Below, piece after piece: positions 2,490 through 11,377 of a stretch of 24,000 nucleotides of DNA. The first letter of the stretch is position 1. Every line of letters starts with the position of its first letter. The stretch is taken from NCBI GenBank assembly GCA_020832135.1, contig JAFIFG010000106.1, positions 5,346 to 29,345 of the forward strand. Direction: 5' to 3'. The position numbers and the translations under genes were made by a program. Under the pieces are notes generated by a model, which did not search any database, was not told where the DNA came from, and worked only from the letters and a program-made list of their open reading frames with translations. The stretch comes from Clostridiaceae bacterium. Lineage in GTDB: Bacteria > Bacillota > Clostridia > Peptostreptococcales > Natronincolaceae.

Positions 2490-3764
2490 TTAAGCAGTAG
2501 TACCTTCACTGTCAGCATCAAAAATGCTTTGGTCAAATTCACCTTCTGCTTTAGCAATAATTGTTGAGCAGACAGCATCTCCAGTAATGTTGATAGCTGT
2601 TCTTGACATGTCCAGCAGTCTATCAATACCCATAATTAACGCAATACCTTCTACTGGCAATCCAACTGATTGTAATACCATGGATAACATAATCAAACCT
2701 ACTCCTGGTACTCCTGCAGTTCCTATAGATGCCAAGGTAGCAGTTAAAATAACTGTTAGTATGGCTGAAAAACCAAGTTCAATACCATATACCTGTGCAA
2801 TAAATATGGTGGCAACACCTTGCATAATAGCTGTCCCGTCCATATTAATCGTAGCACCTAGTGGCAATGTAAAGGAAGCAACATTTTTAGAAACTCCAAT
2901 TTGCTCCTCTACAGTTTCTATGGTAACTGGTAATGTAGCACCACTACTTGCTGTAGAGAAGGCTACAGAGAAGGCTGGGAAGAACTTTTTAAAGAATCTA
3001 ATAGGACTTAACCCTGTAAATCCTTTCAACATTCCACCATAGGTCACAATAGCATGAATAATTAAGGCAGCTATTACTGTTAACATATATTTCGCTAATG
3101 GGATCATAACATCAAAACCTTCGTTAGCAAAGGTTCTAGCAATCAATGCGAAAACACCGTAGGGTGCTAATAACATTACAAAGCCTACCATTTTCATTAT
3201 TAGTTCATTTAATTGATCAAAAATAGCAACAATGCCCTTTGTTCTTTCACCTAATGCAGATAGCCCAACACCAATAAATACAGCAAATACAATGATTTGC
3301 AGCATATTGCCGCTTGACATAGCTGCAACTGGATTTCTCGGAACCATATCAATCAATACTTCTACTAATGGTACACCTTCATTAATTGTTGGTTCACTTG
3401 TAACTACATTTGATAAATCTAATCCTAATCCTGGGTTCACAATAGATGCTAATCCCAATGCAATAGAAATAGCCACAGCTGTTGTTACTAAGTAAAATAG
3501 TACTGTTCTGACACCAATTCTACCTAGCTTTTTAATGTCTCCCATACTAGCAGAACCATTTACCAGTGAAATAAATACTAATGGTACAACCATCATCATG
3601 ATACCTCTTAAGAATACCTGACCAACTAATAAGAATAGTCCATCAACAATAACAGTATCCCTAAAGATTCCCTCTGGAACAAAGTATAATATAATACCTG
3701 TAACAATACCTAACACAAGACCTGCCAGGATTTTTGTAGTAAGACCTTTTTGTTTTACTGACAT
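2490..3764 (-). CDS. Dicarboxylate/amino acid:cation (Na+/H+) symporter, GltP/GltT-like
   Basis: 424 aa with DAACS signature motifs SSGATLPVT, LPLGATINMDGTAI and RTAINITGDAV. The RBS AAAGGAGG is upstream. Confidence 0.85.
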   Translation of the reverse strand: MSVKQKGLTTKILAGLVLGIVTGIILYFVPEGIFRDTVIVDGLFLLVGQVFLRGIMMMVVPLVFISLVNGSASMGDIKKLGRIGVRTVLFYLVTTAVAISIALGLASIVNPGLGLDLSNVVTSEPTINEGVPLVEVLIDMVPRNPVAAMSSGNMLQIIVFAVFIGVGLSALGERTKGIVAIFDQLNELIMKMVGFVMLLAPYGVFALIARTFANEGFDVMIPLAKYMLTVIAALIIHAIVTYGGMLKGFTGLSPIRFFKKFFPAFSVAFSTASSGATLPVTIETVEEQIGVSKNVASFTLPLGATINMDGTAIMQGVATIFIAQVYGIELGFSAILTVILTATLASIGTAGVPGVGLIMLSMVLQSVGLPVEGIALIMGIDRLLDMSRTAINITGDAVCSTIIAKAEGEFDQSIFDADSEGTTA

Positions 3765-4043
3765 AAATTTACCTCCTTTTTAAAAATAATAATTAAGATT
3801 CCAGTACTAACTAAGATATATTATACTTTAAAATTGTAATTTGCACAAGGTTTTGAATTAATTATATATTAATCCATATCAAGCCTCATGCTATTATGTT
3901 CTGTTCATTTCAAACTCATCAATCTATTACTATTATTTATATGATAGCAACTATGCTTTTTATACAAATTAACGCCTTATATATTTGCATATTATTTTTC
4001 ATATCATGCATTTGTTAGAAAATTAACCTTGTCTCCTAAAATT

Positions 4044-7231: not shown

Positions 7232-7445
7232 AAATCTTCCTCCTTTTATCTACATGTAATATTATTTGAAAATTTAGTGATACCTTACAATATATATTAT
7301 TACATAAATTTTAATTTTTTTCACATCCATTCTCTATCTACTACTATATTTTCTGTCTTGGTACTATTATTTTTATCCTCCCCTTGGCTTTTATTATGTA
7401 TAATATAGGAATAACGAAAAATTTAAAAAAAATTGGAGCGATACT

Positions 7446-7811
7446 ATGAATCAATGGATTAACAAAAGCATTAAAATCAACAAATATACCATTAAAAACA
7501 GAATCATCATGCCACCTTTGATCTGTTTCAATTGGGGGGATCAGGATGGATTTGAAACCTACAACCGAGCTGAGCATTATGGTAAACGAGCAAAGGGTGG
7601 AACAGGTCTCATCATAGTTGAAGCCTACTCTACCTCTTAGAAAGGACGTATCGTTCATACAGAACTGGGATTATGGAAGGATCAACACATACCACAATTT
7701 CAAAGAATAGGAGAACACTGTTATAAAGAAGAAACTGTAGCACTTGTTCAAATAGTTCACACTGGTATGAAAGCGGTAGGGACTCCAGTATACTCTGCTC
7801 TTTTAGTTTAG
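7446..7811 (+). pseudogene. Remnant of an Old Yellow Enzyme-family NADH:flavin oxidoreductase (N-terminal ~120 codons, in-frame TAG at 7638-7640)
   Basis: My translation reads MNQWINKSIKINKYTIKNRIIMPPL...HYGKRAKGGTGLIIVEAYSTS*KGRIVHTELGLWKDQHIPQFQRIGEHCYKEETVALVQIVHTGMKAVG...*. It is colinear with the YqjM/OYE N-terminus (KNRIvMsPm, HY..RA.GG.GLIIvEA, GRI....LGiW.D.HI, iQl.HaG). The frame is interrupted by TAG and ends at 7811, far short of a >330-aa OYE. Confidence 0.7.
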
Positions 7812-8012
7812 AATGAATTAATTTGATGTTTTTAATAAATACATGTATAATAATAGAAAAAAAATGTTCATAATATATAACAAAGCTATAAGAGTCATTT
7901 ATGTAGGTATACTTATATAAAATAAAACTTAGTTTGTTCATCTAGAAATATGGGTCTTGGTAATACATAGAAGATAATTATTAAATTTTCAACTTTACTT
8001 TCATTATTTTTA

Positions 8013-8512: not shown

Positions 8513-8791
8513 ATGCAAAATCAACAACAAGGTCAACAACAATTACAACAAGTAACTCAAACTTTACAACAAGCTCAACAAGCAATTCAGCAAGCTCAAA
8601 CAAACTCTAATCCTCAACAATTACAACAAGCTCAACAACAGCTTCAACAAGTAACACAACAATTACAACAAGCAACTCAACAAATGGGCACCGAAACAAA
8701 CCCTCAACAAAAGCAACAGCTTCAACAAGCTCAAAATCAACTTCAACAAGCTCAACAGGCTATGCAACAAGCTCAACAACAAATGCAATAA
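8513..8791 (+). CDS. Glutamine-rich small protein (92 aa, 50 Gln by my count), function unknown
   Basis: Strong RBS AGGAGG 7 nt upstream of the ATG and its own terminator downstream. The frame stays open through highly repetitive CAA-rich DNA. There are three modules separated by T-N-S-N-P and T-E-T-N-P. Confidence 0.7.
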   Translation: MQNQQQGQQQLQQVTQTLQQAQQAIQQAQTNSNPQQLQQAQQQLQQVTQQLQQATQQMGTETNPQQKQQLQQAQNQLQQAQQAMQQAQQQMQ

Positions 8792-8802
8792 AGTGTACAT
8801 AC

Positions 8803-8844
8803 AAAAAGACTGGTTATTTTCCTTGAGAATAGCCAGTCTTTTTG
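8803..8844 (+). terminator. Rho-independent terminator of the Q-rich gene
   Basis: aaaaagactggttatt ... aatagccagtcttttt: a long stem (one mismatch) with A/T-run flanks. Confidence 0.8.
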
Positions 8845-9008
8845 TATGATTTAAAATTAATTTTTTGATTAATTTTAAAAATTTGTCTGTATGGATCGAA
8901 TAATAATATTTTTTTTATAAATATTACAAATTATGACATTTTTCTAAAAAATTATATTGTATAATTTAAATGTTACAACTTTTTTATATTTAAGAAAGGA
9001 GGTGTATT

Positions 9009-9152
9009 ATGAAAAATATTAAGAACTATATAATGAAAAATTCACTGGGACTACTAGCTTTTTTAGCATTAATAGTTGGGACAACCTCTATTTCAACTAA
9101 CTCTATGTTTTTAATTCATCAAGTAAAATGTCCTGAAGAATTACTGAAATAA
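9009..9152 (+). CDS. agrD: AgrD-like autoinducing-peptide precursor (47 aa; not in the supplied ORF track because it is short)
   Basis: Hand translation: MKNIKNYIMKNSLGLLAFLALIVGTTSISTNSMFLIHQVKCPEELLK. GGAGG at 8998-9002 with 6-nt spacing. It has a hydrophobic/amphipathic leader, a short core, and a charged tail with a P-E-E-L motif. It lies directly upstream of an AgrC-like kinase and AgrB. Confidence 0.7.
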   Translation: MKNIKNYIMKNSLGLLAFLALIVGTTSISTNSMFLIHQVKCPEELLK

Positions 9153-9202: not shown

Positions 9203-10561
9203 ATGGAATTAGATGTATTTTTAAATAATATTATTTTTAACATTTTTGAAGGATTAATTTTATTATTTATATTCTTAATTTTAATTAACAGAAGGAATTT
9301 TATACAAATCAATAAATTTAAAACATTAATATTTATTAGTATCTATGCTATATTTTCTTATTGGGCTACAGTTTATATGCCAGTAGGTTATCATAGTATT
9401 GCTATTATATCATTTAGTATTATCTGTCTTTCATTAATTACTTCTACTAGCTTACTACACTCATTTATGGGAATATTAATAAGTGCAATTTTTTTCATGG
9501 TTACTGAACTTATAGTTTTTGCCAGTCTCTCAATATTTAATCATATAAAAATTTCAGATATAATAAACAGCCCAATTATTAAGCTTCAAATGTCTATTAT
9601 AACACGAATCCTTCAAATTTCAATGCTTATATTGCTATATAAATCAAAAAAGATATTTTGGAGGAACATACAACCTAGCTCAAATACTATGCTTTCTTAT
9701 TTTATATTGGGTATATTTCTTATGGGTATTTTTATATTTAATGTTAGTTTTGCTGTTTCAACTAAAGAGAATATCTTTTTATATGAAATTTTGCTGTCCT
9801 CTATTTTTCTTTTATTTATATTTTTAGGAGCTTTAGTATATCAAGAGAAGAAACAACTTTTGAAAATAGAGCATGTATATAAATCACAACAAGAATATAT
9901 ACAAAATATGGAAACAATTATGAACATTATTCGCCGTGAAAAACATGATTTTTCTAATCACCTCAGTACTATACATGCTATGTGTGTACTAAATAAGCCA
10001 AACACCCCTGAAAAAATAAAAGCATATATTGATAAATTAGCAAATAGTCTACACTCATCCTATCGTTATTTCAATACAGGAAATGATTTTATTGATGGCC
10101 TATTAGCGGTAAAAAGTAATTTTGCCTTCAATCATAATATTCACTTTGAAGTAGATTTTGAAATTCCACTTAACCATTTATCTGTAGAGGATGAAAATCT
10201 TATAAGTATTTTAAGTAATATAATAGATAATGCCTTCGATGCCATTGCAACAGATGAGGATACGGAAAATAAAGTTGTATCTATCTGTACCTATGCTGAG
10301 GATCATAGACACTATTTATCTGTATCAAATAATGGTCCTATGATCTCTAAAGAAAATATAGATAAGATTTTTTCAAATGGATACTCATCGAAAACTAATA
10401 ACAAAGGGGATCATGGTTTAGGCTTATATATTGTAAAGCAATTAATAGAAAAGAACAATGGCACAATAACAGTTTCAAGCAACGAAGAGGAAACAAACTT
10501 TTTAATTAGATTTAATAAGGAGAAGATTAATCATGGAAAAACTAGCCCACAACATCACTAA
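9203..10561 (+). CDS. AgrC-like sensor histidine kinase (polytopic sensor plus HPK10-type GHKL kinase)
   Basis: 452 aa with about 6 N-terminal TM helices. H-box REKHDFSNHLSTIHAM, N-box ILSNIIDNAFDA, G-box GDHGLGLYIVKQL. No PAS or HAMP domain. The architecture is that of AgrC/ComD-type peptide receptors. Confidence 0.8.
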   Translation: MELDVFLNNIIFNIFEGLILLFIFLILINRRNFIQINKFKTLIFISIYAIFSYWATVYMPVGYHSIAIISFSIICLSLITSTSLLHSFMGILISAIFFMVTELIVFASLSIFNHIKISDIINSPIIKLQMSIITRILQISMLILLYKSKKIFWRNIQPSSNTMLSYFILGIFLMGIFIFNVSFAVSTKENIFLYEILLSSIFLLFIFLGALVYQEKKQLLKIEHVYKSQQEYIQNMETIMNIIRREKHDFSNHLSTIHAMCVLNKPNTPEKIKAYIDKLANSLHSSYRYFNTGNDFIDGLLAVKSNFAFNHNIHFEVDFEIPLNHLSVEDENLISILSNIIDNAFDAIATDEDTENKVVSICTYAEDHRHYLSVSNNGPMISKENIDKIFSNGYSSKTNNKGDHGLGLYIVKQLIEKNNGTITVSSNEEETNFLIRFNKEKINHGKTSPQHH

Positions 10562-11096
10562 TTTAATACAACAAAATAATACCAACTTAAGTGAACTAGA
10601 AATCAAAAAAATTCAATTTGGATTACATTGTTTATTTGCAGAGATATCTAAAATTATAGTTTATTTAATGATATTTTCTCTTTTTTCACTGACAAACTAT
10701 TTTTTAGTTAGTTTATTCTTCTTCTGCACATTAAGATTGATAGCAGGAGGCTATCATGAGAATACCTATTGGAAATGTTTTTTTTCTAGTTTTATTCTGT
10801 TTGTTATCATCATAGGGATAGGCACATTTTTTTTCTTTTCCTTCTATAAAAAAATATTTATATTAACAATATCATTTATTATTACTTGGATTTATGCTCC
10901 AGTAGATCATCCTAACAAACCAATACTAAGTAACTTAAGAAGAAAAAAATTTAAATATCTTTCTTTATTTACTTTAGTACTTTTAGGTAGCATTAGTTTT
11001 TTATTGCCAGAACAACTATCTACTATAGCAATAATAGCAATTTTAATTGAGACTTTATCTCTACCAGTAGGATATTTTGCAAAAAAGGGGGTATAG
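10533..11096 (+). CDS. agrB: Accessory gene regulator B (AgrB) family membrane peptidase
   Basis: 187 aa with about 4-5 TM helices. It has the conserved AgrB region LRLIAGGYHENTYWKCFFSS (catalytic His/Cys pair). Its ATG, behind AAGGAG, lies 29 nt inside the kinase 3' end. Confidence 0.8.
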   Translation: MEKLAHNITNLIQQNNTNLSELEIKKIQFGLHCLFAEISKIIVYLMIFSLFSLTNYFLVSLFFFCTLRLIAGGYHENTYWKCFFSSFILFVIIIGIGTFFFFSFYKKIFILTISFIITWIYAPVDHPNKPILSNLRRKKFKYLSLFTLVLLGSISFLLPEQLSTIAIIAILIETLSLPVGYFAKKGV

Positions 11097-11098
11097 AA

Positions 11099-11332
11099 AT
11101 GAAATCATTAAAGGGTGAACTTATAGAGGATTCAACTATAATTAAAACCTCATCCGCATCCTATAATAACCCAAGTGATTTTTTTATTGCACTTGTAACT
11201 ATAAGTGATAACTTAGATGTTGATATTCCAATATGGACACTAAAAGAGGATAAATTATTAAAACAGCATAAGGAAGTAATATTACAATTGGACACTAATT
11301 TATCTCTAAGAATATACTTACAGGAGCATTAA
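11099..11332 (+). CDS. Hypothetical soluble 77-aa protein, translationally coupled to agrB
   Basis: The ATG is 2 nt after the agrB stop, with the RBS AAGGGGG about 7 nt upstream. No TM segment and no motif I recognise. It is the last gene before the terminator hairpin at 11349-11377. Confidence 0.55.
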   Translation: MKSLKGELIEDSTIIKTSSASYNNPSDFFIALVTISDNLDVDIPIWTLKEDKLLKQHKEVILQLDTNLSLRIYLQEH

Positions 11333-11348: not shown

Positions 11349-11377
11349 AAGCTCAAGAGATCTATCCCTTGAGCTTG
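11349..11377. terminator. Hairpin between the convergent agr-like cassette and the isochorismatase gene
   Basis: aagctcaag (11349-11357) / cttgagctt (11369-11377), a 9-bp stem with an 11-nt loop. U-tracts are weak on both strands. Confidence 0.5.

Follow-up and report, generated by a model that had tools for sequence, protein, structure and literature searches.

The locus considered here raises the question of which residue closes the ring of the autoinducing peptide (AIP) that it appears to encode. In the window, that is, the whole stretch of 24,000 nucleotides of clostridial DNA that we analyzed, a preliminary description made from the sequence alone had singled out a short ORF as an AgrD-like precursor in which Ser, rather than the usual Cys, would form the ring. 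Computed translation of this ORF gives the 47-aa product MKNIKNYIMKNSLGLLAFLALIVGTTSISTNSMFLIHQVKCPEELLK, which agrees letter for letter with the hand translation reported earlier, and the residue numbering used there, including Ser32 and Cys41, is correct. The peptide matches the NCBIfam profile TIGR04223 (‘AgrD family cyclic lactone autoinducer peptide’) with a score of 43.6 bits (cut-off 19, E = 2.2e-11), AgrD residues 10-47 being aligned with all 38 profile positions (1-38). This end-to-end match above the cut-off bears out the assignment to the AgrD family. The proposed three-part layout is present as well, the window AgrD comprising the leader MKNIKNYIMKNSLGLLAFLALIVG, the core ..STNSMFLI and the tail HQVKCPEELLK. 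The Pfam AgrD model gave no match to the 47-aa peptide. GGAGG-like sites similar to the one preceding agrD in the window are present also 5′ of homologous agrD ORFs. Judged by its sequence, the ORF is a genuine AgrD precursor with Ser, not Cys, at the predicted ring-forming position. Coordinates of agrD, its parts and the surrounding features are collected in the table.

Table. Features of the agrD locus, in window coordinates
Feature	Position	Strand	Basis or remark
Promoter-like ATGACA ... TATTGT / TATAAT	8933-8965	+	Consensus match only
RBS GGAGG	8998-9002	+	6 nt 5′ of agrD ATG, read off sequence
agrD, AIP precursor, 47 aa	9009-9152	+	TIGR04223, synteny, column and codon-position analysis
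agrD leader M1-N31	9009-9101	+	
agrD predicted ring S32-I36	9102-9116	+	
Ser32 codon TCT, predicted ring nucleophile	9102-9104	+	S/T/C column, 10 residues before Pro42
agrD tail H37-K47	9117-9149	+	
Cys41 codon TGT, conserved tail residue, not ring former	9129-9131	+	Invariant 37/37
Pro42 codon	9132-9134	+	
19-bp perfect stem-loop over agrD stop codon	9145-9186	+	Containing stretch folds at -30.6 kcal/mol
‘AgrC-like’ orphan sensor histidine kinase, 452 aa	9203-10561	+	Pfam SPOB_a, HATPase_c, HATPase_c_5; hydropathy
agrB, membrane peptidase/cyclase, 187 aa, His75/Cys82 catalytic	10533-11096	+	PF04647, 131 bits, 3.6e-38
orf77, conserved 77-aa protein	11099-11332	+	Starts 2 nt after agrB stop
Hairpin, likely transcription-unit end, before convergent isochorismatase gene	11349-11376	.	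Terminator-like site

agrD is the first gene of an apparent operon in which it is followed, all on the + strand, by the kinase gene, agrB and orf77. The preliminary description had taken agrB to be directly adjacent to agrD, which is not the case: agrB is located 1.4 kb downstream, beyond the kinase gene, which its start overlaps by 29 nt. Gly72, Gly73, His75 and Cys82 of the window AgrB are invariant in 35 of 35 AgrBs of the family. The catalytic pair of S. aureus AgrB, H77/C84, has the same i+7 spacing as His75/Cys82.

Promoter-like sites in this AT-rich region number 24, compared with 20.6 expected by shuffling, and since this count is not above the shuffled expectation, the promoter listed in the table is a positional guess. 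Control of agrD through a Spo0A box was considered and rejected: the box (TGNCGAA) is present upstream of agrD in one of 36 loci as against 5.7% of control windows, i.e. it shows no enrichment. The hairpin over the agrD stop codon is matched in position, though not in sequence, by hairpins at most related loci. As it has no clear U-tract on the + strand, a function can be suggested for it only conditionally; possibly, it acts as an attenuator or a transcript stabilizer between agrD and the kinase gene, and it may let the precursor transcript exceed the message for the kinase and AgrB, thereby setting the precursor-to-enzyme ratio. agrD is preceded by a 92-aa ORF (8513-8791, + strand) made up of Gln-rich repeats (QQLQQ, QQAQQ) over nearly its whole length, which yields weak, sub-threshold Pfam matches only and has its own strong terminator at 8802-8844. 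Further upstream, two overlapping ORFs of ~100 aa on the - strand (7344-7941) have no Pfam matches, and the public gene call on the opposite strand (7446-7640; 1438-1632 in L081) is a 64-aa fragment with a match to Oxidored_FMN; this stretch is probably a gene remnant.

To collect homologs, we had to rely on the kinase, because a direct search of a word-indexed database with the 47-aa peptide as a query retrieved the peptide itself only. An exhaustive phmmer search against 1.84 billion representatives (E <= 0.001) added five AgrD relatives, their small number being due to the short query. By contrast with the peptide, the kinase yields 155 relatives at E <= 1e-10, mainly in Clostridia, the closest of which are 52-57% identical to it. 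An alignment of 30 kinase relatives led to 80 genomic loci, 54 of them with a full-length kinase. In tblastn searches of these loci with the window proteins, an agrD-like ORF was found 50-250 nt upstream of the kinase gene in 35 loci, agrB directly downstream of it in ~45 loci, and orf77 after agrB in 16-17 loci. The order agrD-kinase-agrB is shared across ~35 clostridial genomes. The earlier reading had been made dependent on conservation of the ORF next to homologous kinase/agrB pairs, and the agrD-like ORFs at 35 loci give no reason to abandon it. The closest genomic relative of the window (L001, JADPRS010000022.1; 57% kinase identity) is labelled ‘Lutibacter sp. B2’, a Bacteroidota genus. 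Since this type of locus is otherwise found in Bacillota only, the L001 assembly probably carries a wrong label or contaminating DNA.

Ring and tail were brought into register with the help of the 37 syntenic AgrDs having an 11-residue tail, which were compared gap-free from the C-terminus. Column -5, occupied by Ser32 in the window, holds Ser in 22 homologs, Thr in eight and Cys in seven, i.e. one of these three residues in 100% of the sequences, and in none of the other columns does their joint share exceed 57% (46% at -6, 38% at -7, 57% at -8). Columns -4 to -1 are hypervariable, as expected of the ring that confers specificity on an AIP. Ser32 is separated from Pro42 by a spacing of 10 residues, the same as that between C28 and P38 in AgrD-I of S. 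aureus. The spacing is also 10 (S25-P35) in the C. thermocellum AgrD verified by mass spectrometry (PMC5322536). Taken together, the restriction of column -5 to Ser, Thr or Cys, the hypervariable ring and the spacing of 10 put Ser32 at the nucleophile position. All five of the additional relatives detected by phmmer have Ser or Thr at -5 together with the identical tail Cys. The proposal that S32-M-F-L-I36 constitutes the ring, originally reached by aligning on the tail, is thus corroborated by a tail-anchored column that is Ser, Thr or Cys in 37 of 37 homologs.

The tail follows the consensus [HYQ]-Q-P-[KE]-C-P-x-E-L-L-K, in which Gln2 and Cys5 are present in 37 and Pro6 in 35 of the 37 homologs. 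Within its codons, positions 1 and 2 are conserved at ~1.0, and position 3 at 0.43-0.73. Variation of the third codon position at conserved first and second positions indicates selection on the agrD tail as protein and, on this codon evidence, the tail is under purifying selection family-wide. Pro-X-X-Pro has been described as the tail motif of clostridial AgrDs (PMC8748961). In the window, Pro42 and EELLK of the tail motif are present, and the first Pro of Pro-X-X-Pro is replaced by Val39; this position is Pro in 32 of the 37 relatives and Val, Ile or Ala in the others.

Cys41, which the preliminary description had assigned to the tail, does belong there: it corresponds to the invariant Cys5 of the consensus, encoded by both TGT and TGC, and in seven homologs it is found alongside a ring Cys, which in all seven lies exactly at -5. 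In the outliers L073 and L076 the tail-Cys column holds Ile, with Ser still at -5, and more generally the Ser-type AgrDs encoded at the distant loci L056, L057, L063, L073 and L076 have Ile, Val or Pro instead of the tail Cys. Classical AgrDs have Val, Ile or Glu in this column, and the presence of the tail Cys is uncorrelated with the type of nucleophile. We also considered the tail Cys as a thiol relay required by precursors with an oxygen nucleophile. This idea was rejected because the tail Cys is found also together with a ring Cys (seven peptides) and is missing in distant Ser-type AgrDs.

How firmly is Ser32 then established as the residue closing the ring? Taken on its own, the window peptide would permit other choices: the stretch T25-T-S-I-S-T-N-S32 carries several hydroxyl side chains, and with a pre-ring region so rich in Ser and Thr an alternative nucleophile is conceivable from this single sequence, e.g. 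Thr30 or Ser29 forming a 7- or 8-residue lactone, as is a cut one residue off Ile36/His37. Macrocycles of six (C. acetobutylicum) and nine (GBAP) residues are indeed known. Such a register is nevertheless very unlikely, since it is at column -5 only that Ser, Thr or Cys is universal, since the ring Cys of Cys-ring homologs is at exactly this column in seven cases out of seven, and since the spacing between Ser32 and Pro42 is that of two experimentally defined AgrDs. The same homolog columns effectively exclude a thiolactone formed by Cys41 (C-P-E-E-L or similar), for which Ser32 would be irrelevant. What speaks for Cys41 is that it is the sole Cys of the window peptide and strikingly invariant among homologs. 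However, the six residues following it would not suffice to make both a ring and a tail recognized by AgrB, it resides within the part of the peptide that is conserved best, unlike the rings of AIPs, which are hypervariable, and it precedes the conserved Pro that marks AgrD tails; in addition, both the seven homologs having two Cys and L073 and L076, with Ile in its place and Ser at -5, argue against it. Finally, the ORF might be an agrD that has decayed or fallen silent and whose product is neither made nor processed any more, which would fit the observation that its closest relatives are only ~50-60% identical. Given the intact ORF with its strong RBS, the intact catalytic residues of AgrB, the intact kinase boxes and the family-wide purifying selection on the tail, we find this hardly credible.

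The most serious rival concerns the final product only and leaves the biosynthesis unchanged. If the leader were cut directly before Ser32, so that no exocyclic tail remained, the free amine of Ser32 could attack the ester, and this O-to-N acyl shift would convert the lactone into the all-amide cyclo(SMFLI) as the stable product. Tail-free thiolactone AIPs of clostridia are known to rearrange within minutes to homodetic cyclopeptides, and the fate of tail-free Ser lactones (H. thermocellum) was left unsettled in the same study (Molloy et al. 2021, PMC8251862). In C. thermocellum, cleavage at A24|S25 likewise yields a tail-free peptide (PMC5322536), but the product has been reported as a lactone matching the synthetic standard (Verbeke et al., PMC5322536). 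Among the homologs, Ala or Thr frequently precedes the nucleophile, which would suit such a cut, whereas in the window Asn31 does. By the -3/-1 rule, sites for signal peptidase I seldom have Asn at -1. This mildly favors a cut further upstream, after which a remaining exocyclic tail would prevent the shift, and hence a stable lactone. On balance, the all-amide product is unlikely, and a lactone closed by Ser32 is the reading that we retain.

The exchange of Ser, Thr and Cys at the nucleophile column can be set against the corresponding enzymes. When ordered by sequence similarity, AgrBs partnered with Ser, Thr and Cys peptides are interleaved; for example, AgrB of L037 (Cys) is 79% identical to that of L047 (Ser), and AgrB of L010 (Thr) is closest to that of L024 (Ser). 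This points to interchangeable nucleophiles that were switched repeatedly with no obvious change in the enzyme and suggests that AgrBs of this clade can use oxygen and sulfur nucleophiles alike. Thr is present at the nucleophile column in L002, L003, L010, L011, L014, L017, L020 and L023 (8 of 37; agrD ORFs at ~3660-3955 of the respective loci), as well as in two of the five further relatives (P0124 and P0125). A literature search found no report of a Thr-cyclised AIP, though this search was limited and an earlier report is therefore possible. Ser-type AgrDs are not confined to the agrD-kinase-agrB arrangement. They are found also in the distant loci L056, L057, L063 and L073, which have the classical order kinase-agrB-agrD with the agrD ORF just downstream of agrB. 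These loci come from Desulfofundulus, Tepidibacillus and Aneurinibacillus, with rings and tails such as SWLTW|YQPEVP, SALFI|YQPDPP and SWWTS|YEPEIP, and show Ser nucleophiles to be common among environmental Bacillota.

The kinase encoded between agrD and agrB has ~6 hydrophobic segments within residues 1-210, followed by an H-box (EKH248DF) and by a GHKL ATPase domain, and its H, N and G boxes are intact. Against the AgrC equivalog NF046015 it scores 33.9 bits, far from the cut-off of 500. The best matches of its core are of the DcuS/MalK type (100 bits), making it more similar to DcuS/MalK/CitA than to AgrC. Judged by these profile scores, the window kinase is not strictly an AgrC. In public annotation, its gene is called from an internal Met (P0002, 279 aa), whereas homologs align from residue 1 of the 452-aa ORF. 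Neither a receiver domain nor a LytTR regulator (agrA) is encoded within the 24-kb window. Of 54 related loci, searched with receiver-domain sequences as queries and with L045 as a positive control, 53 have no receiver domain closer than 4 kb to the kinase. As there is no AgrA-like regulator nearby, reception of the signal by this kinase is an assumption.

The last gene of the apparent operon, orf77, encodes a protein with the conserved motif FFxALVxxCxxLxVDIPxWTxxE. Its AlphaFold2 model, predicted from a 2-sequence alignment, has a pLDDT of 85 and β-β-α-α-β-β topology. Despite this confident model, Foldseek returned no significant PDB match, and the sequence has no match in Pfam or PDB. orf77 takes the position that in acetogens belongs to a Spo0E-like gene, such as the 57-aa Spo0E-like ORF in the C. 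ljungdahlii locus (L032, 6016-6189). The possibility that orf77 itself is Spo0E-like was rejected, as it has neither a Spo0E-like Pfam match nor the SQxxD motif.

We consider it probable that the agrD product is the AIP precursor of an agrD-kinase-agrB-orf77 system, in which Ser32 closes a five-residue lactone. The sequences establish membership in the AgrD and AgrB families, the conserved operon, the ring and tail register and the exchange of Ser, Thr and Cys at the nucleophile column; the individual steps can be proposed by analogy with AgrB/AgrD of S. aureus and with the C. thermocellum lactone. The 47-aa peptide would enter the membrane via its leader, and AgrB, using His75 and Cys82, would recognize the tail HQVKCPEELLK and cut between Ile36 and His37. 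The Ile36 carbonyl would be held by AgrB as an acyl-enzyme thioester until attacked by the side-chain oxygen (Oγ) of Ser32, giving the five-residue lactone cyclo(S-M-F-L-I). The cyclic peptide would then be exported and its leader trimmed, the neighboring polytopic kinase being the likely sensor of the product. As no response regulator is linked, the output, too, can be proposed by analogy only. Several observations count against the proposal, namely, the silence of the Pfam AgrD model, the replacement of the first Pro by Val39, although a few relatives likewise have Val, Ile or Ala there, the pre-ring region rich in Ser and Thr, the DcuS/CitA-like core of the kinase and the lack of an AgrA-like regulator nearby.

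A bolder reading, which we regard as rather doubtful, would make the locus an agr variant working without a response regulator. A cyclic peptide closed by an ester of Ser, Thr or Cys would be sensed by a DcuS-like orphan kinase, and the output would pass through an unlinked partner (e.g. Spo0A) or orf77, which takes the place of the Spo0E-like phosphatase of acetogens. The invariant tail Cys would serve specifically in processing by AgrB or in a second function that the tail, once released, has inside the cell, and members with Thr would produce a threonine-lactone AIP. If true, the latter would represent a new chemical subclass, one that is not known to have been described.

The closest known counterpart of the window locus is Agr system 1 of acetogens. 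In C. autoethanogenum, this system consists of agrD1-agrC1-agrB1 (CLAU_0816-0814), with no agrA and with a Spo0E-like gene downstream, and the same arrangement has been noted in other acetogens (Piatek et al. 2022, PMC8748961). The precursors listed in Table S5 of that study, e.g. ...IVPT STGGA YQPKCPDEFLK, have a five-residue ‘lactone ring’ that begins at Ser (PMC8748961). The entries for C. drakei and C. ragsdalei are identical to the peptides of L026 and L047, so that the window peptide belongs to a family which had already been annotated with the interpretation given in the preliminary description. The acetogen system and the window share the gene order agrD-kinase-agrB with no linked agrA, a 47-aa precursor with a Ser-started five-residue ring, and the tail [HYQ]QPKCP[DE]ELLK including its Cys. 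Their kinases are of the same family, the loci of C. ljungdahlii, C. drakei and C. ragsdalei having been retrieved with the window kinase, but are only ~35-40% identical. The window further differs in its new ring, SMFLI, in Val instead of the first Pro of Pro-X-X-Pro, and in having orf77 rather than a Spo0E-like gene after agrB.

Experimental precedent is available from C. thermocellum (Acetivibrio thermocellus), which secretes a Ser25-Phe29 lactone pentapeptide, as confirmed by LC-MS/MS in comparison with a synthetic reference (Verbeke et al. 2017, PMC5322536). Its precursor, Clo1313_2818, resembles the window AgrD in the Ser nucleophile, the five-residue ring, the Pro 10 residues after Ser and a tail opening with an aromatic residue or His. 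Unlike the window gene, which is part of a complete operon, Clo1313_2818 is not co-localized with agrB or a kinase gene. Further Ser-cyclised signals listed in a 2025 primer are those of C. difficile agr2, NSA[SSWVA], and S. pseudintermedius, RIPT[STGFF], as well as GBAP (PMC12312760). The AIP of S. pseudintermedius/intermedius, C. difficile agr2 and GBAP of E. faecalis are agr-type and Ser-cyclised, as predicted for the window, but they are produced by canonical agrBDCA/fsrBDCA systems, whose kinase is of the HPK10 and whose regulator is of the LytTR type, and the GBAP ring has nine residues. S. aureus shares with the window the three-part precursor, a nucleophile 10 residues before the tail Pro and the His/Cys i+7 pair; it differs in its Cys thiolactone, the agrBDCA order and an AgrC-type kinase with AgrA.

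In view of these systems, the earlier statement that Ser-lactone AIPs are rare and typical of the S. intermedius group is outdated: Ser is the majority nucleophile here (22 of 37), it has been predicted in C. autoethanogenum, verified by mass spectrometry in C. thermocellum and assigned in C. difficile agr2, and it recurs in the distant Ser-type loci. The window agrD is an ordinary addition to a published family, and its interpretation is not new. As originally stated, the observation adds one more predicted Ser-type AIP, with the ring SMFLI and from an uncultured clostridial relative, and matters little. More useful is the view at the level of the family, in which Ser is the commonest nucleophile, Cys is in the minority and Thr accounts for about a fifth of the members. 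It is at this level that residual interest lies, in the Thr nucleophiles, in the invariance of the tail Cys and in a route of signalling with no linked regulator.
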